Sequence record: ON210139.1
From: Escherichia phage EC128
Length of the DNA stretch: 64,000 bases
Strand: one strand, 5' to 3'
In this document: piece by piece, positions 4,230-34,944 of the stretch
Layout of the letters: every line of letters begins with the position of its first letter
Position numbering within the stretch: position 1 is the stretch's first letter
The notes under the pieces: model-generated
Told to the model about the DNA's origin: nothing
Database searches by the model: none
Seen by the model: the letters and a program-made list of their open reading frames with translations, nothing else
Program-made: the position numbers and the translations under genes

Positions 4230-4302
4230 TGGGAATTAGCCAAGTTGGTAAGGCACTGGATTTTGATTCCAGGATGCAAAGGTTCGAGTCCTTTATTCCC
4301 AG
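4230..4302 (+). tRNA. tRNA-Gln (anticodon UUG)
   Basis: Cloverleaf: acceptor TGGGAAT/ATTCCCA, anticodon loop TTTTGAT, T-loop TTCGAGT. Confidence 0.85.
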
Positions 4303-4303
4303 C

Positions 4304-4390
4304 GCGAGAATGGTCAAATTGGTAAAGGCACAGCACTTAAAATGCTGCGGAATGATTTCCTTGTGGGTTCGAGTCCCACTTCTCGCACCA
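4304..4390 (+). tRNA. tRNA-Leu (anticodon UAA), long variable arm, CCA encoded
   Basis: Acceptor GCGAGAA/TTCTCGC, anticodon loop CTTAAAA, T-loop TTCGAGT, 3' ACCA. Confidence 0.85.
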
Positions 4391-4395
4391 AATTT

Positions 4396-4469
<74 letters not shown>

Positions 4470-4479
4470 ATTTAATTTA

Positions 4480-4553
4480 CTCCGTGTAGCTCAGTTTGGT
4501 AGAGCGTCTGCTTTGGGAGCAGAATGTCGTAGGTTCAAATCCTGCCACGGAGA
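4480..4553 (+). tRNA. tRNA-Pro (anticodon UGG)
   Basis: Acceptor CTCCGTG/CACGGAG, anticodon loop TTTGGGA, T-loop TTCAAAT. Confidence 0.8.
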
Positions 4554-4555
4554 CT

Positions 4556-4642
4556 GGAGGCGTGGCAGAGTGGTTTAATGCACCGGTCTTGAAAACCGGC
4601 AGTCGCTCCGGCGACTCATAGGTTCAAATCCTATCGCCTCCG
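4556..4642 (+). tRNA. tRNA-Ser (anticodon UGA), long variable arm
   Basis: Acceptor GGAGGCG/CGCCTCC, anticodon loop CTTGAAA, T-loop TTCAAAT. Confidence 0.8.
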
Positions 4643-4644
4643 TT

Positions 4645-4720
4645 GCTGATTTAGCTCAGTAGGTAGAGCAACTCACTTGTAATGAGAAGGTCGGCGGTTC
4701 GATTCCGTCAATCAGCACCA
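4645..4720 (+). tRNA. tRNA-Thr (anticodon UGU), CCA encoded
   Basis: Acceptor GCTGATT/AATCAGC, anticodon loop CTTGTAA, T-loop TTCGATT. Confidence 0.85.
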
Positions 4721-4721
4721 A

Positions 4722-4793
4722 GGCCCTGTAGCTGGAAGGTTCAAGCAAGCGACTCATAATCGCCAGATGGTGGTTCAATTCCACCCAGGGCCA
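4722..4793 (+). tRNA. tRNA-Ile (anticodon CAU, AUA-reading type)
   Basis: Acceptor GGCCCTG/CAGGGCC, anticodon loop CTCATAA, T-loop TTCAATT. Confidence 0.75.
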
Positions 4794-4834
4794 TATTTTG
4801 GGAACATAAATACTCTTAGAAATAGGAGATATTT

Positions 4835-5500
4835 ATGTTCCATTACACTTATAAAATAACAAATAAAATTAATAATAAAATTTATATTGGTGTGCATTCT
4901 ACCGAAAATTTAGATGATGGATATATGGGTTCTGGTAAATTATTAAAAAGAGCCCAAGATAAATATGGTATAGAAAATTTTTCTAAAGAAATATTAGAGT
5001 ATTTTGATGATAAAGAATCTATGCTTGAAGCCGAGAAAAATATTGTCACAGAAGAGTTTTTAAATAGACCAGATGTGTATAATTTAAAACTTGGCGGTGA
5101 AGGTGGATGGGACCATATAAATATTCCTGGGATGCTAAACCAGAAGAAAGACGCTAGTTTAAAAGGAGCTAAATCGTTTAAGTCACGTTTTAAAAATGAT
5201 ATTTTACTTCAAGAAAAATATCGTAAACATGGTTCAAATGTATTTAAACGCTTGTGGTCAACTCCTGAATACAGGGAAAAATTTTTAAATAATAGCAGAT
5301 TTTTAAATAAGCATCATACTCCTGAAACTATTAATAAAATGAAAGAATCTCACGCCAGAAATAAACACCAACAGGGCGAAAAGAATTCCCAATTTGGTAT
5401 GATGTGGATTCATTCATTAGATGAAAAAGTTTCTAAACGTATTAAGAAAACTGACCCAATTCCAGAAGGATGGTTTAAAGGTCGAAAAATGAAATTTTAA
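4835..5500 (+). CDS. segB: GIY-YIG homing endonuclease SegB-like
   Basis: 221 aa; N-terminal YTYKITNKINNKIYIGVHS...DGYMGSG; NUMOD-like basic repeats; inserted between tRNA-Ile and tRNA-Arg. Confidence 0.8.
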   Translation: MFHYTYKITNKINNKIYIGVHSTENLDDGYMGSGKLLKRAQDKYGIENFSKEILEYFDDKESMLEAEKNIVTEEFLNRPDVYNLKLGGEGGWDHINIPGMLNQKKDASLKGAKSFKSRFKNDILLQEKYRKHGSNVFKRLWSTPEYREKFLNNSRFLNKHHTPETINKMKESHARNKHQQGEKNSQFGMMWIHSLDEKVSKRIKKTDPIPEGWFKGRKMKF

Positions 5501-5503
5501 TTA

Positions 5504-5580
<77 letters not shown>

Positions 5581-10276: not shown

Positions 10277-10807
<531 letters not shown>

Positions 10808-10866: not shown

Positions 10867-11283
10867 ATGACTCGTATTAATTTGACTTTAGTATCTGAAC
10901 TTGCTGATCAACATTTAATCGCAGAATACCGTGAATTGCCGCGTGTTTTTGGTATAGTTCGTAAGCATGTGGCAAACGGTAAGCGCGTTAAAGATTTTAA
11001 AATATCTTCTAAATTTATTTTAGGTTCTGGTCATGTTACTTTCTTTTACGATAAGTTAGAATTTTTGCGAAAGCGTCAATCGGACATTATAACGGAATGC
11101 TTAAAACGCGGGTTCAGTATAAAAGATACTGAAGTTCCTGACATCAGCGATATTCCAGTAGAATGGAAAAATGATTATAATCCATGCAAATCAGCTATTA
11201 AGTTGAGTCAACAACGACTCGATGAAAAAATTTTAATGAAGCCACACTGGTATAAGTATTACGGCAAAAATATTTACATTTAA
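10867..11283 (+). CDS. denV: endonuclease V, pyrimidine-dimer DNA glycosylase
   Basis: 138 aa, [29 protein letters not shown]..., GGAGG RBS. Confidence 0.9.
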
Positions 11284-11380
11284 ATAACATGGGAATAACC
11301 TGGACCTCATGATTCTGTGAGGGATTCCCGCCAACCTGTAATAAGGTCGAGCCCAAGTGCGGTAATGGGTAAATACAGAA

Positions 11381-11968
11381 ATGGACAATTCATGCGCCAT
11401 GGAATGGCCCAAACCTAGAGATAACAAAATGAGAACATTTTTAACTGGTCCTTATCTATCCCTGATGAATGCTTTTACACACCATTCTGATGCTAGAGTA
11501 GAAGAAATTTGTAAAAACGAATATATCCCGCCATTTGAAGACTTACTTAAACAGTATTGCACACTTCGACTAGACGGTGGACGTCAATCTGGTAAATCAA
11601 TTGCTGTGACTAACTTTGCTGCTAATTGGTTGTATGATGGCGGAACAGTTATTGTTCTTTCTAATACTTCAGCTTACGCTAAAATTTCTGCAAATAACAT
11701 TAAAAAGGAATTTTCGCGTTATTCTAATGATGATATACGTTTTCGTTTATTTACTGATTCTGTACGCAGTTTTATTGGTAATAAAGGAAGCAAGTTCAGA
11801 GGTTTATCGCTTTCGCGAATTTTGTATATAATTGATGAGCCTGTCAAATCTCCTGATATGGATAAGATTTATAGTGTCCATATTGACACTGTACACTGCT
11901 GCTGTAATATTAAATGTTGTATTGGTGGTATTACTCGTCCACAGTTTTTCGTAATCGGAATGCAATGA
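11381..11968 (+). CDS. hypothetical protein with Walker-A-like GGRQSGKS and a Cys-rich tail
   Basis: 195-aa ORF; start uncertain (alternative ATG 11429); CCCNIKCC near C-terminus. Confidence 0.4.
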   Translation: MDNSCAMEWPKPRDNKMRTFLTGPYLSLMNAFTHHSDARVEEICKNEYIPPFEDLLKQYCTLRLDGGRQSGKSIAVTNFAANWLYDGGTVIVLSNTSAYAKISANNIKKEFSRYSNDDIRFRLFTDSVRSFIGNKGSKFRGLSLSRILYIIDEPVKSPDMDKIYSVHIDTVHCCCNIKCCIGGITRPQFFVIGMQ

Positions 11969-12294
11969 TGACAGACACTCAGCTTTTCGAATATCTTTAT
12001 TTTTCGCCAAAAACTATTAAAAATAAATTGGTGAATCATTTTGAAATTTTGGCAAATAACAACGTCTTGAGCGAATTTTATCCTAAGCAATACAAATTAC
12101 AAAAAGGCGTATTCAAAGGATGTAGAGTTTTATGTACTGCTCCTAATGCACGGCTAATGAATAAAATTCCATATTTTACCATGGAATTTATTGATGGGCC
12201 TTTTAAAGGACTAATCACACAGAGTTTAATGGCATATGATTCTGAGCCATTTTTAATTAAAGAACAATCTTGGATAAATTTATTTTCTAATTGA
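11965..12294 (+). CDS. hypothetical protein
   Basis: ATG overlapping upstream stop (ATGATG); about 110 aa. Confidence 0.4.
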
Positions 12295-12301
12295 GGTTTA
12301 T

Positions 12302-12664
12302 ATGAAAGCATATCAAATTCTTGAAGGCACACATAAAGGTACTATTTATTTTGAAGATGGTATTCAAGCACGAATTATCGTTTCTAAAACCTTTAAAGAG
12401 GACTCTTTTGTAGACCCAGAAATTTTCTATGGTTTGCATGCCCGTGAAATTGAAATTGAGCAACAGCCTACAGTTAAAATTGAAGGTGGTCAACACCTGA
12501 ACGTTAACGTTCTGCGTCGTGAAACTCTGGAAGATGCAGTTAAGCATCCGGAAAAATATCCGCAGCTGACCATCCGTGTATCCGGTTATGCAGTTCGCTT
12601 TAACTCTCTGACTCCGGAACAGCAGCGCGACGTTATCGCTCGTACCTTTACCGAGAGTTTGTAA
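12302..12664 (+). CDS. grcA: autonomous glycyl-radical cofactor, GrcA/YfiD-like
   Basis: C-terminal ...[29 protein letters not shown] matches the glycyl-radical domain of E. coli YfiD/pyruvate formate-lyase; 3' half uses host-like CTG/CGT/CCG codons. Confidence 0.85.
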
Positions 12665-12885
12665 TGGCAAAGATAATTATTGAAGGTTCTGAAGATGTGC
12701 TAAATGCTTTCGCCGAATGGTTTAGTAATTCAGGCGAACAGCAATTTAACGAAGCATGGAACATGGGTGATATTAATGGAATTTATCCTACTACAGAAAT
12801 TTCTGTTCAGGGATATGGCATTCATGAACCTATTCGTTTAGTTGAATACGATTTATGTACTGGTGAGGAAGTCAAATATGATTGA
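12664..12885 (+). CDS. hypothetical small protein
   Basis: 73 aa, TAATG coupling to grcA-like gene. Confidence 0.5.
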   Translation: MAKIIIEGSEDVLNAFAEWFSNSGEQQFNEAWNMGDINGIYPTTEISVQGYGIHEPIRLVEYDLCTGEEVKYD

Positions 12886-30333: not shown

Positions 30334-30807
30334 ATGTTATTGACTGGCAAATTATATAAAAAAGAAAAACAGAAATTTTATGATGCACAAAATGGTAAAT
30401 GCTTAATTTGCCAACGAGAACTAAATCCTGACGTTCAAGCTAATCACCTCGACCATGACCATGAATTAAATGGACCAAAAGCAGGAAAGGTACGTGGATT
30501 GCTTTGTAATCTATGCAATGCCGCAGAAGGTCAAATGAAGCATAAATTTAATCGTTCTGGCTTAAAGGGACAGGGTGTTGATTATCTTGAATGGTTAGAA
30601 AATTTACTTACTTACTTAAAATCCGATTACACCCAAAATAATATTCACCCTAACTTCGTTGGAGATAAATCAAAGGAATTTTCTCGTTTAGGAAAAGAGG
30701 AAATGATGGCTGAGATGCTTCAAAGAGGATTTGAATATAATGAATCTGACACCAAAACACAATTAATAGCTTCATTTAAGAAGCAGCTTAGAAAGAGTTT
30801 AAAATGA
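30334..30807 (+). CDS. 49: endonuclease VII (Holliday-junction resolvase)
   Basis: 157 aa; CLICQ...HLDHDH...CNLCN His-Me finger/zinc motif. Confidence 0.9.
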   Translation: MLLTGKLYKKEKQKFYDAQNGKCLICQRELNPDVQANHLDHDHELNGPKAGKVRGLLCNLCNAAEGQMKHKFNRSGLKGQGVDYLEWLENLLTYLKSDYTQNNIHPNFVGDKSKEFSRLGKEEMMAEMLQRGFEYNESDTKTQLIASFKKQLRKSLK

Positions 30808-31341
30808 CAATTGAAAAAGAAATTGAAGGATTGATTCATAAAACTAATAAAGACCTTTTGAACGAGAATGCTAATAAAGATTCTCGTGTTTTTCCAACTC
30901 AACGGGACCTTATGGCTGGTATTGTGTCTAAACACATTGCCAAAAATATGGTCCCGTCTTTTATTATGAAAGCGCATGAAAGCGGAATTATCCATTTCCA
31001 TGATATTGATTATTCCCCTGCTCTTCCATTTACTAATTGCTGTTTAGTAGATTTAAAAGGAATGCTTGAGAACGGATTTAAGCTCGGTAATGCACAGATT
31101 GAAACTCCTAAATCAATTGGCGTTGCTACTGCAATTATGGCACAAATTACTGCACAGGTTGCTTCCCATCAATATGGCGGAACGACTTTTGCGAATGTAG
31201 ATAAAGTACTTTCTCCTTATGTTAAACGCACCTATGCAAAACATATTGAAGATGCAGAAAAATGGCAAATCGCCGATGCGTTGAATTATGCTCAATCTAA
31301 AACAGAAAAAGACGTATACGATGCATTCCAAGCTTATGAGT
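30804..31341 (+). CDS. nrdD: anaerobic ribonucleotide reductase NrdD, exon 1
   Basis: Frame runs to 31349 but homology to exon 2 resumes at 32381; splice after U31341 inferred. Confidence 0.8.
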
Positions 31342-31545
31342 TAACGTAAGTCAAGCTCATGTAAAATCTGCCTAAAACGGGAAACTCTCACTGAGACAAT
31401 CCGTTGCTAAATCAGCGGTAGCTGTAAATGCCCAACGACTATCCCTGATGAATGTAAGGGAGTAGGGTCAAGCGACCCGAAACGGCAGACAACTCTTAGA
31501 GTTGAAGATATAGTCTGAACTGCATGGCGACATGCAGCTGTTTAT

Positions 31546-31576: not shown

Positions 31577-32353
31577 ATGAAATGGAAATTAAGAAAAAGC
31601 TTAAAAATTGACAATTCTGTAGCATTTACCTATATGGTAAGATTTCCTGATAAGTCTTTTTATATAGGTTTTAAAAAATTCAAAACTATATATGGTAAAG
31701 ATACAAATTGGAAAGAATACAATTCGTCATCTAAGCTTGTTAAAGAAAAGCTTAAAGATTATAAAGCTAAGTGGATAATTCTTCAAGTTTTTGATTCTTA
31801 TGAATCGGCCCTTAAACATGAAGAAATGCTTATTAGGAAACATTTTAATAACGAATTTATTCTTAATAAATCTATAGGTGGATATAAATTTAACAAATAT
31901 CCGGATTCAGAAGAACATAAGCAAAAACTTAGTAATGCCCATAAAGGTAAAATCTTATCTTTAAAACATAAAGATAAGATACGAGAGAAATTGATTGAGC
32001 ATTATAAAAATAATAGTAGAAGTGAAGCTCATGTTAAAAATAATATTGGTAGTAGAACGGCTAAAAAGACTGTTTCTATAGCTTTAAAATCCGGAAATAA
32101 ATTTAGAAGTTTTAAATCAGCTGCAAAATTTCTTAAATGCTCTGAAGAACAGGTTAGTAATCATCCAAATGTTATAGATATAAAAATAACAATTCATCCC
32201 GTCCCAGAATATGTTAGAATAAATGACAATATCTATAAATCATTTGTGGATGCTGCTAAAGATTTAAAACTCCACCCAAGTCGTATTAAAGATTTGTGCT
32301 TAGATGACAATTATCCAAATTACATTGTTTCATATAAACGGGTAGAGAAGTAG
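31577..32353 (+). CDS. intron-encoded GIY-YIG homing endonuclease, I-TevII-like
   Basis: 258 aa; FTYMVRFPDKSFYIGF; located inside the nrdD intron. Confidence 0.75.
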   Translation: MKWKLRKSLKIDNSVAFTYMVRFPDKSFYIGFKKFKTIYGKDTNWKEYNSSSKLVKEKLKDYKAKWIILQVFDSYESALKHEEMLIRKHFNNEFILNKSIGGYKFNKYPDSEEHKQKLSNAHKGKILSLKHKDKIREKLIEHYKNNSRSEAHVKNNIGSRTAKKTVSIALKSGNKFRSFKSAAKFLKCSEEQVSNHPNVIDIKITIHPVPEYVRINDNIYKSFVDAAKDLKLHPSRIKDLCLDDNYPNYIVSYKRVEK

Positions 32354-32380
32354 CGAACTCTACTGAACACATTGATGAAG

Positions 32381-33654
32381 TGAACACGTTATTCAGTTCA
32401 AACGGACAAACGCCTTTTGTAACAATTACATTTGGTACGGGAACTGACTGGACTGAACGAATGATTCAGAAAGCAATTTTGAAAAATCGTATTAAAGGTC
32501 TTGGTCGTGATGGGATAACTCCTATTTTCCCTAAGCTTGTTATGTTCGTTGAAGAAGGTGTTAATCTTTATAAAGACGATCCGAACTATGATATTAAGCA
32601 GCTTGCTCTAGAGTGTGCAAGCAAAAGGATGTATCCTGATATTATTTCAGCTAAGAACAATAAAGCTATCACTGGTTCATCTGTTCCTGTTTCTCCAATG
32701 GGTTGCCGTAGTTTCTTGAGCGTATGGAAAGATTCGACTGGTAATGAAATTCTTGATGGACGTAATAATCTTGGTGTTGTAACACTGAATCTTCCTCGCA
32801 TCGCGTTAGATTCTTATATTGGAACACAGTTCAATGAACAGAAATTTGTTGAATTATTCAATGAACGAATGGATTTGTGTTTTGAAGCATTGATGTGTAG
32901 AATTAGTTCCTTAAAAGGAGTTAAAGCTACTGTTGCTCCTATTCTTTACCAAGAAGGTGCATTCGGGGTTCGTCTTAAACCTGATGACGATATAATTGAG
33001 TTATTTAAAAGCGGTAGAAGTTCAGTGTCCCTAGGATACATTGGTATTCACGAATTGAATATTCTTGTTGGTCGTGATATTGGACAAGAAATTTTAACTA
33101 AAATGAATACTCATCTTAAACAATGGACTGAAAGAACTGGTTTTGCTTTTAGTTTGTATTCTACTCCTGCTGAAAACCTGTGCTATCGCTTCTGTAAACT
33201 TGATACCGAAAAATATGGAAGTGTAAAAGATGTTACCGATAAAGGCTGGTACACTAACAGTTTCCACGTTTCGGTAGAAGAAAATATTACTCCATTTGAA
33301 AAGATTTCTCGCGAAGCCCCATATCATTTCATTGCGACAGGTGGTCACATTTCTTATGTTGAACTTCCTGATATGAAAAATAACTTAAAAGGTCTTGAGG
33401 CCGTATGGGATTATGCTGCACAACATTTAGATTATTTTGGTGTTAACATGCCGGTAGATAAATGTTTTACATGCGGAAGTACCCATGAAATGACTCCTAC
33501 TGAAAACGGATTTGTTTGTTCTATTTGTGGAGAAACTGATCCTAAAAAGATGAACACCATAAGAAGAACATGCGGATATCTTGGAACTCCTAGCGTTGTT
33601 CCATGGAATTTAGGTAAAATGAAAGAAATGGTAAAACGAGTAAAACATGCATAG
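32381..33654 (+). CDS. nrdD: anaerobic ribonucleotide reductase NrdD, exon 2
   Basis: Zinc site CFTCGSTH...CSICGE and glycyl-radical motif RRTCGYLG near the C-terminus. Confidence 0.85.
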
Positions 33655-34477
33655 GTATTATATAATTTATAAAATAACAAATATAATTAATTCAAAGGAA
33701 TATATCGGTGCGCATAGCACCGATAACATAAATGACGGTTATATGGGGTCAGGAACATTGATTCGTGCCGCTTTATTAAAATATGGTAGAAAAAATTTTA
33801 ATAAAGAAATTTTACATGTTTTTGATAATGAAAAACAAATGTATGATAAAGAAGCTGAACTTGTAACCGAAGAGTATTGTCTAAAAGAAAATACATATAA
33901 TATTAAACCTGGTGGAAAAGGTGGAACTGCCTATGAACAGACACTTGAACATCGCCGCAAAAATAGTTTAGCAAATAAAGGTAAAAAGAGAACAGAAGAA
34001 ACTAAAATAGCTATTTCACGTGCTTTAAAGAAATATAAACGTACGCCAGAGCATCAAGCAAATTTAAATAAAGCCGTAAGCATAGCTATGAAGCGAAAAG
34101 ATGTTAGAAGTAAATTAGCTGGAGAGCGGTCTGAGAAAGATAAATTATCTATATCAAACGGTGTTAAAAAATATTACAATTCTTTGAGTGAAGAAGAACG
34201 CGAACTTCATCGCAAGCGAATTATTGAAGGTAAAAAGAATTCTCCCATGTCATTGGAATCTAGACAAAAGCTTTCAAAAGCTTTAAAAGGACTTCAAGTT
34301 GGTTCAAAAAATCCAATGTATGGAAAAATTTCTCCAACTAGCAAAACCGTTTCAGTTGACGGTATTAAATATGATTCAATTAAAAAGTGCTCAAATGCCA
34401 TAAAAGTTTCTAGACATCTTATACTAAAACGCTGTAATTCTACTGATGAAGCTTGGAAAAATTGGATATTATTATGA
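33647..34477 (+). CDS. GIY-YIG homing endonuclease (seg-like) between nrdD and nrdG
   Basis: 276 aa; YYIIYKITNIINSKEYIGAHSTDNINDGYMGSG; overlaps the nrdD stop and the nrdG start. Confidence 0.75.
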   Translation: MHRYYIIYKITNIINSKEYIGAHSTDNINDGYMGSGTLIRAALLKYGRKNFNKEILHVFDNEKQMYDKEAELVTEEYCLKENTYNIKPGGKGGTAYEQTLEHRRKNSLANKGKKRTEETKIAISRALKKYKRTPEHQANLNKAVSIAMKRKDVRSKLAGERSEKDKLSISNGVKKYYNSLSEEERELHRKRIIEGKKNSPMSLESRQKLSKALKGLQVGSKNPMYGKISPTSKTVSVDGIKYDSIKKCSNAIKVSRHLILKRCNSTDEAWKNWILL

Positions 34478-34944
34478 ATTATGACAGAATATACCCGTGC
34501 TGCTTTGTGAATGGCCCTGGATGCAGGGTCGTTCTTTTCGTTACAGGTTGTTTGCATAAATGTGAAGGGTGTTATAATAAATCAACATGGAATGCTAGAA
34601 ATGGTGTTCCATTCACTGGTGAAACACTAGAACAATTAATTGAATGTTTGAATAATGATTATATAGAAGGATTGACTATAACCGGAGGTGACCCTCTTTA
34701 TCCTGATAACAGAGACGTGATTCACTCTGTGGTTCAAACTATTAAAAATCTTTATCCCAATAAAAGCATTTGGTTGTGGACAGGATATAAGTTTGAAGAT
34801 ATTAAACAACTAGAAATGCTTAAATATGTTGATGTTATTATTGATGGGAAGTATGAGAAAAATCTTCCGACTAAAAAGCTGTGGCGAGGATCAGATAATC
34901 AGCGACTTTGGTCAAATACCGATGGGGTGTGGACACATGATTAA
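34474..34944 (+). CDS. nrdG: anaerobic RNR activating enzyme NrdG (radical SAM)
   Basis: 156 aa from ATG 34474; CLHKCEGCYN radical-SAM cysteine motif. Confidence 0.85.
   Translation: MNYDRIYPCCFVNGPGCRVVLFVTGCLHKCEGCYNKSTWNARNGVPFTGETLEQLIECLNNDYIEGLTITGGDPLYPDNRDVIHSVVQTIKNLYPNKSIWLWTGYKFEDIKQLEMLKYVDVIIDGKYEKNLPTKKLWRGSDNQRLWSNTDGVWTHD

Follow-up and report, generated by a model that had tools for sequence, protein, structure and literature searches.

The open reading frame (ORF) at positions 12302–12664 in a 64-kb stretch of Escherichia phage EC128 (ON210139.1; a T4-like Tequatrovirus genome segment of 64,000 nucleotides (nt), hereafter the window) is an ortholog of T4 vs.6 (Y06I), which encodes a small stand-alone glycyl-radical protein of the GrcA/YfiD type (TIGR04365, IPR011140). 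We consider it probable that this gene, with a role in the repair of pyruvate formate-lyase (PFL), is an old resident of T4-like phages, and that its 3' half was overwritten by host grcA through homologous recombination, in a process that is recurrent and matched to the host. The ORF of 120 amino acids (aa) lies exactly where an earlier sequence-only reading had placed it. That reading had proposed that host DNA was captured relatively recently and joined to an N-terminus encoded by the phage; the recent host origin of the 3' half was borne out, whereas the fusion was not, the N-terminal half being itself a diverged version of the GrcA N-terminal domain.

Host-identical tract in the 3' half of vs.6

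In a codon alignment, positions 12480–12651 were identical to E. coli grcA over an unbroken run of 172 nt, and the only mismatches in the 3' half were located at 12479, 12652, 12655, 12658, and 12659. The first of these replaces GTT with ATT, while the other four are synonymous and fall within the last four codons. When the gene was searched by blastn against 5,426 complete E. coli genomes, only ORF nt 179–363 (12480–12664) aligned, at 97.8% identity, in every genome and always to grcA; the N-terminal part (12302–12479) gave no nucleotide alignment in the same search. Throughout the 64 kb, the tract was the sole E. coli-like DNA detected by megablast, apart from its own 80% echo on pflB. With approximately 80% identity to pflB versus 97–100% to grcA, the tract points to grcA, and not pflB, as its donor. 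At the protein level, 60 of the 61 C-terminal residues were identical to E. coli GrcA, the sole difference being I60 versus V, in agreement with the near-identity to YfiD/GrcA that had been noticed from the sequence.

A switch in composition and codon usage had been noticed around nt 12478 and was confirmed, with the identity seam at 12479/12480. The GC content rises from 0.34 in the N-terminal part to 0.48 in the C-terminal part and that of third codon positions from 0.20 to 0.44; a GC content as high as that of the tract is reached by only 0.44% of the 186-nt segments in the 64 kb. The codon usage of the C-terminal part ranks within the bottom 2% of 61-codon stretches cut from the phage's own ORFs, whereas that of the N-terminal part is typical. 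The tract uses the host-type codons CTG, CGT, and CCG: leucine is encoded by CTG in five of six cases and proline by CCG in all three, versus 7 and 16% in the phage genes, respectively. Since orthologs lacking a host-identical tract also show a compositional seam, albeit a weaker one, composition is not decisive, and it is the nucleotide identity that decides the matter.

The window also carries eight tRNA genes at 4230–5580 (Gln, Leu-UAA, Gly, Pro-UGG, Ser, Thr, Met, and Arg-UCU). The codons read by these phage tRNAs end in A or U, and the CTG, CCG, and CGT codons of the tract would therefore depend on host tRNAs.

The most host-like coliphage copy that we saw is that of Escherichia phage OES_C-2 (L107:1223–1585), whose last 186 nt depart from E. 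coli at only two sites. It has an exact run of 175 nt and a 6-nt deletion in the N-terminal part, and among its last four codons only GAG departs from the E. coli allele.

The probability that the tract is an artefact of assembly or sequencing, with host reads chimerically joined to phage assemblies, is negligible. Host DNA does occur in phage preparations, but hundreds of independent genomes carry the tract, the reference sequences of T4 and T2 among them, and its junction is in frame, with phage-type flanking codons inside the same ORF.

Protein constraint, donor and direction of transfer

The glycyl-radical domain is extremely conserved in all phages and bacteria, and the C-terminal part is fairly GC-rich even in genera without the tract, so that the identity could be put down to a constrained domain under purifying selection or with convergent codon usage, without any DNA transfer. 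As a baseline for such constraint, we used Slopekvirus 150040 and Pseudotevenvirus EC-F1, whose C-terminal 61 residues are 100% identical to E. coli GrcA. Their DNA was about 82.8% identical to that of E. coli, with longest exact runs of 17–20 nt, and 30 of the 61 codons differed synonymously, versus four in the window. At this baseline, the probability of a 172-nt run is approximately 2e-13. Moreover, the synonymous sites match E. coli in E. coli phages and Klebsiella in Klebsiella phages. Constraint without transfer is thus refuted by the synonymous-site control, and we give it practically no weight. Because the 172-nt run lies far beyond what the same protein shows at baseline, the tract is regarded as transferred DNA, and the nucleotide alignment to grcA that the sequence-only reading had called for gave an identity well above the level set by protein constraint. 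The pattern is that of gene conversion, with host identity above the constraint baseline and phage-lineage sequence on both flanks within the gene.

The tract showed 97.3% identity to E. coli, 96.2% to Escherichia sp. MOD1, 89.8% to Citrobacter, and at most 90% to other genera; on these identities, the donor was E. coli or a very close relative. A search for multiple Escherichia donor alleles was negative: a TCT variant in Mosigvirus G2285 matches MOD1, but no complete E. coli genome was closer to G2285 than the common allele.

Pairwise identity alone gives no direction, and nothing specific speaks for the reverse transfer, in which E. coli and Klebsiella would have acquired the 3' half of grcA from phages. 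The N- and C-terminal parts of bacterial grcA diverge in step across the Enterobacterales (88/92% between E. coli and Citrobacter and 84/88% between E. coli and K. pneumoniae), the codon usage of the tract is host-type, and the tract nests within Escherichia; for these reasons, the transfer is taken to have run from host to phage. In addition, all of the 5,426 E. coli genomes carry the tract at the ung-grcA locus, and the reverse direction would need two separate species-wide fixations. We therefore judge it extremely improbable.

Probable replacement within an older phage gene

A single recent illegitimate capture, in which a fragment of E. coli grcA was joined to an unrelated phage N-terminal peptide to give a new chimeric gene, would account for the sharp 5' seam with no nucleotide similarity upstream and for a junction that is identical in all 638 E. 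coli-type records. However, the N-terminal part is homologous to the N-terminal domain of GrcA: the N-terminal halves alone matched by BLASTP with E=5e-6 (35% identity over 40 aa), and the alignments to TIGR04365 and to the solved structure of E. coli GrcA (PDB 6OWR) begin at residues 20–22, inside this half. Because the N-terminal half is itself a GrcA homolog, replacement is favoured over fusion. The same 120-aa gene in the same order is also found in Slopekviruses, Pseudotevenviruses, and others with the C-terminal part at baseline divergence, the terminal codons are still phage-type, and Klebsiella phages share the junction but carry Klebsiella-derived DNA. The capture-and-fusion model is largely refuted and seems improbable to us; an older phage homolog of grcA whose 3' half was overwritten by host DNA through gene conversion fits better.

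The wider distribution of the gene supports this order of events. The 120-aa architecture, the phage-type N-terminus, and the neighbours (a vs.7-like ORF upstream; a vs.5-like ORF and regB downstream) recur in Jiaoda-, Slopek-, Pseudoteven-, and Mosigviruses. With the longer relatives from Krischvirus, T5-like phages, and further groups, the phage records number 1,591 in total. In most of these other lineages, the C-terminal part was at a baseline of 70–84% identity to any of approximately 100 sampled bacterial grcA genes. The Slopek- and Pseudotevenvirus copies were considered as possible followers of Klebsiella, Enterobacter, or Citrobacter grcA, which was rejected, as they were 82–84% identical to every sampled host. 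Because their C-terminal part stands at baseline from all of these hosts, vs.6 is considered older than the tract. The last codons retain a phage-type state, with AGT (Ser119) common to Tequatro-, Mosig-, and Slopekviruses and to Pseudotevenvirus EC-F1.

Comparison of the window with Mosigviruses showed that the N-terminal part differs by 11–12% and the tract by 1.2–2.9% (Fisher p 4e-5 to 2e-3), and that the tract forms a peak of identity between flanks that are 50–90% identical. Since the tract diverges less than the N-terminal part, it would be younger than the split of Tequatro- and Mosigviruses, or would have been renewed since. That the 3' half arrived recently, relative to the divergence of the phage itself, is supported by its nucleotide identity to grcA, which far exceeds the level expected from protein constraint.

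The residues of the baseline genera deserve a separate remark. Slopekvirus 150040, isolated on Klebsiella, and Pseudotevenvirus EC-F1, isolated on Enterobacter, carry the E. coli-type motif TLEDAVKH, not TLLDAVEH of the Klebsiella/Enterobacter type, while Citrobacter phage Miller (a Pseudotevenvirus whose record lists no host) carries TLKDAVKH; in all three, the DNA is approximately 82% identical to that of E. coli. Their E. coli-type residues may be the remnant of a much older event of Escherichia or Citrobacter type.

Recurrence and host matching

A total of 638 phage records were at least 95% identical to E. coli grcA nt 200–384. At the same position, 106 phage records, nearly all from Klebsiella Jiaodaviruses, were 95–99% identical to K. 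pneumoniae grcA nt 202–369/374, and Klebsiella phage KPV15 shared an exact run of 140 nt with that gene. The Jiaodaviruses also carry the Klebsiella-type residues L/E (TLLDAVEH) versus E/K (TLEDAVKH) in the coliphages. An informative-site mosaic test of KPV15 against a sister phage and K. pneumoniae was significant (Bonferroni p=1e-3), and between closely related Jiaodaviruses whose proteins are identical, the C-terminal part is more divergent than the N-terminal part.

The end points of the tracts varied to different extents in the two groups. All Tequatro- and Mosigvirus tracts share one 5' end, and 3' variation is confined to the last four codons, whereas the Jiaodaviruses KPV15, Nispero, KP179, and PKO111 differ from one another. 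Within the Jiaodavirus C-terminal part, the host-identical tract ends at nt ~160 in KPV15 and at nt ~172 in Nispero and PSE-D1, and KP179 is Klebsiella-like only over the first ~93 nt; the phage-type 3' end is common to all of them. KP179 and PKO111, with 87–88% identity to Klebsiella versus 97–98% in other Jiaodaviruses, were examined as counter-examples and dismissed as such, their 5' portion being Klebsiella-like and their 3' portion more diverged. On these sequence comparisons, the replacement has happened at least twice independently, each time from the phage's own host genus.

The RefSeq record of KPV15 (NC_055715, L102:1221–1583) has the N-terminal part of vs.6 out of frame and annotates it as two short ORFs, while its K. 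pneumoniae-identical tract is intact. This reflects either a sequencing error or an incipient pseudogene.

A third case is suggested by the metagenomic contig L128 (IMGVR_UViG_3300008607_000007). Unlike its sister contigs, which differ in that segment, it matches Haemophilus grcA exactly over 56 nt in the 3' half of the domain (corrected p=6e-3). This is suggestive of a further host-matched conversion with a Haemophilus donor. L128 and its sisters (L126 and L129–L131) form a phage clade of approximately 90–150 kb from human-associated metagenomes with its own GrcA-like gene. Another candidate, the 19-kb IMG/VR contig IMGVR_UViG_2706794630_000006, was rejected as a source of phage GrcA; it carries a bacterial-type grcA that is 91% identical to Yersinia and has the N-terminus MITGIQITKA..., and is probably host sequence or a prophage flank.

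Proposed mechanism of replacement

The proposed sequence of events starts from an old vs.6 in T4-like phages. In the Tequatro- and Mosigvirus lineages, the segment at 12480–12651 has been exchanged for the matching stretch of E. coli grcA, and the phage-type N-terminal domain and the last few codons have stayed untouched. The most likely route would be homologous recombination (gene conversion) between vs.6 and fragments of the host chromosome during infection. The recombination system of T4 is highly active. Pairing with host DNA would be possible because strong protein constraint keeps this segment alignable, and nothing in the 64 kb other than the glycyl-radical domain resembles host DNA closely enough to pair. 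The same replacement would have taken place in Klebsiella Jiaodaviruses from Klebsiella grcA, making the process both recurrent and host-matched.

We tentatively extend this proposal, although the extension is less probable than the replacement itself and may well not hold, to a view of the 3' half of vs.6 as a standing patch of homology that recombines repeatedly with the host, so that the copy tracks the current host genus (Escherichia, Klebsiella, and possibly Haemophilus). Each conversion would reset the identity to approximately 100% and therefore make the next one likelier. Selection may also act on such a patch, favouring a copy that matches the PFL-repair system of the host exactly.

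Selection, rather than a neutral side effect of recombination, might maintain the identity or drive the replacement, in that a copy equal to the grcA of the current host, in protein or RNA, could offer better docking on PflB/PflA, host-optimal codons, or mimicry of host mRNA; such a cause would be compatible with a mechanism of gene conversion. In Tequatro- and Mosigviruses, the tract is fixed; its residues track the host in the E. coli and Klebsiella phages, and its host-type codons are unserved by the phage tRNAs, which read UUA-, AGA-, and CCA-type codons. However, Slopek- and Pseudotevenviruses thrive on Klebsiella and Enterobacter with diverged DNA and E. coli-type residues, the host types differ at only two residues, and a Salmonella-type tract was seen in no phage. 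On balance, selection as the cause appears unlikely.

Several points weigh against replacement by recurrent, host-matched recombination. Recombination with host DNA is inferred from sequence patterns. The 5' junction of the Tequatro- and Mosigviruses does not vary among records and coincides with the limit up to which homology can be aligned, which leaves very little flanking homology for a crossover; the first event may have occurred in a common ancestor with an illegitimate 5' junction. The two genera may also have been converted separately, or the tract may have been exchanged between phages, and a test for alternative E. coli donor alleles of the Mosigvirus tract among complete E. coli genomes was negative. 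The baseline genera have C-terminal parts that are more GC-rich than their N-terminal parts, and may themselves hold old captures from unsampled hosts. The best match of any phage to a Salmonella-type tract was at most 84%, so host matching is not universal. Finally, the vs.6 protein of the window scores below the cut-off of TIGR04365, the NCBIfam equivalog for GrcA (154.9 versus 170 bits, with an alignment covering residues 20–120), a shortfall that we attribute to the diverged N-terminal domain.

Identity and function of the vs.6 protein

The protein of the window differs from T4 vs.6 at two positions over 120 aa. In Pfam, its sole domain is Gly_radical (PF01228) at residues 60–101 (E=2.5e-18), with the motif RVSGY at residues 92–96 and Gly95 as the predicted radical glycine. 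It matched 6OWR with E=9e-42 and residues 697–759 of PflB with E=5e-26, and many phage records annotate vs.6 homologs as GrcA.

Both the identity of the gene and its biochemical role are already known. PMC8683613, with reference to Wagner et al. 2001, names just two proteins as validated "spare parts", T4 Y06I and E. coli YfiD/GrcA; in that account, both are activated by the PFL-activating enzyme and restore PFL cleaved by O2. The complementation experiment proposed in the sequence-only reading is thus already reported for the T4 ortholog. Across two amino acid differences, the function of T4 Y06I probably extends to the protein of the window. The PFL-activating enzyme of the host would place the radical on Gly95, and the activated vs.6 protein would dock on PFL that had been cleaved by oxygen at its own radical glycine and bring its activity back, sustaining the output of acetyl-CoA, ATP, and formate by fermentation in the infected cell. 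With host gene expression off, the cell itself would presumably be unable to supply GrcA. A role of vs.6 in nucleotide metabolism was earlier proposed from a shared Pfam domain (PMC1524935); the identity as GrcA and the published rescue of PFL argue for PFL as the target instead.

Gene neighbourhood and other features of the window

The gene order e, denV, vs.8, vs.7, vs.6, vs.5, vs.4, vs.3, regB is the same in the window and T4, and approximately 1.3 kb around vs.6 was 97–98% identical to many T4-type phages of Escherichia and Shigella. As expected of the vs.6 ortholog group, the gene lies between the vs.7-like and vs.5-like ORFs in the denV–regB segment and has the phage-type N-terminus [14 protein letters not shown]; vs.6 is listed among the conserved genes of T4-like genomes (PMC1524935). 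Its stop codon TAA overlaps the ATG of the downstream vs.5-like ORF (12664–12885). A scan for promoters and terminators around vs.6 gave no more than expected from shuffled sequence, and no homing endonuclease gene adjoining vs.6 was found in the ORF list or by Pfam. The coordinates of the features are listed in Table 1.

Upstream, the lysozyme gene e (10313–10807) is directly followed by denV (10867–11283); the intervening ipII and ipIII of T4 are absent here. Between denV and the vs.8-like ORF, the stretch at 11290–11420 has a GC content of 0.42–0.48 versus a background of 0.345, and it matched neither Rfam nor E. coli.

The genes nrdD and nrdG had been placed in the same region as vs.6. Both are indeed in the window, but they lie 18–22 kb downstream, separated from vs.6 by tk and numerous further genes, and do not form one unit with it. 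The intron of nrdD includes a group I intron RNA at 31306–31537 (Rfam RF00028, 98 bits) and an ORF at 31577–32353 resembling GIY-YIG/NUMOD1 homing endonucleases. A second endonuclease-like ORF (33647–34477; NUMOD3 and an I-TevI DNA-binding domain) lies between the two nrd genes and overlaps both, nrdD at its end and nrdG at its start (34453).

Table 1. Coordinates of vs.6, its parts, and the nrd genes in the window.
Feature	Position	Strand	Basis or remark
GAGG Shine-Dalgarno sequence of vs.6	12293–12296	+	Read from sequence; overlaps the stop codon of the upstream vs.7-like ORF (11914–12294)
vs.6/Y06I ortholog, 120-aa GrcA-like autonomous glycyl-radical cofactor (spare-part type)	12302–12664	+	ORF; T4 comparison; Pfam; 6OWR
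Phage-lineage N-terminal part, aa 1–60	12302–12479	+	AT-rich; phage codon usage; diverged homolog of the GrcA N-terminal domain
Probable host-derived tract, 172 nt, equal to E. coli grcA nt 200–371, encoding the glycyl-radical domain	12480–12651	+	Base-for-base identity
Gly95 codon in RVSGY, predicted glycyl-radical site (corresponding to E. coli GrcA G102 and PflB G734)	12584–12586	+	Motif position; alignments to 6OWR and PflB structures; residue role from PMC8683613
Last four codons and stop	12652–12664	+	ACC GAG AGT TTG versus E. coli ACT GAA AGC CTG; phage-type states
nrdD exons	30804–31346 and 32380–33654		Split by a group I intron
nrdG	34453–34944		

Significance and comparison with known systems

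T4-type phages replace cytosine in their own DNA and destroy the host chromosome, and they are usually deemed genetically isolated from the host on short time scales. The tract in vs.6 is an unusually clean entry of host DNA into a virulent phage, with 172 of 172 bases identical and the end points mapped, in the best-studied phage family. It suggests that homologous replacement from host to phage recurs wherever protein constraint keeps enough similarity, and it makes vs.6 a concrete locus for measuring recombination between host and phage. If conversion is ongoing, rather than a matter of two or three old events, vs.6 would offer a natural reporter by which host-to-phage recombination could be measured in phages whose DNA is modified and which break down the genome of their host. 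The tract may also serve as a marker of recent host history in T4-like phages, which is relevant to therapy isolates labelled by isolation host, and it calls for caution with phylogenies of auxiliary metabolic genes and with host-prediction tools that rely on nucleotide matches. No prior report of the identity between vs.6 and grcA at the DNA level was found in the open-access literature, a search that did not extend to key older T4 papers; the match may have been noticed earlier, as a BLAST search of T4 against E. coli would reveal it.

The closest known system is T4 vs.6 itself, which likewise encodes 120 aa between denV, vs.8, and vs.7 upstream and vs.5, vs.4, vs.3, and regB downstream, and which also contains an E. 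coli-identical tract (138 nt in T4). The T4 gene differs from that of the window by Q54 versus P, R73 versus H, and two synonymous changes in the last codons. E. coli GrcA (YfiD, 6OWR) is similar in being a stand-alone protein with a Gly_radical domain, and its N-terminal domain is distantly homologous. Unlike GrcA, the protein of the window is 7 aa shorter, its N-terminal domain is encoded by AT-rich DNA with phage codons, and its gene resides in a lytic phage rather than at the chromosomal ung-grcA locus. The C-terminal glycyl-radical domain of PflB/TdcE is also homologous to vs.6, as reflected in the 80% DNA echo of the tract on pflB.

Intragenic recombination between host and phage is known from the cyanophage genes psbA and psbD (Zeidner 2005; Sullivan et al. 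2006, PMC1484495). As in vs.6, a host-like metabolic gene is borne by a phage, the GC content is patchy, segments are swapped between host and phage copies, and the phage copies cluster by host range. Unlike these genes, vs.6 has a tract that equals the present-day host allele exactly and whose end points are mapped; the DNA appears to have passed into the phage from hosts of two genera, at a single position and in the C-terminal domain only; and it is found in T-even coliphages, which contain hydroxymethylcytosine and destroy the DNA of their host.

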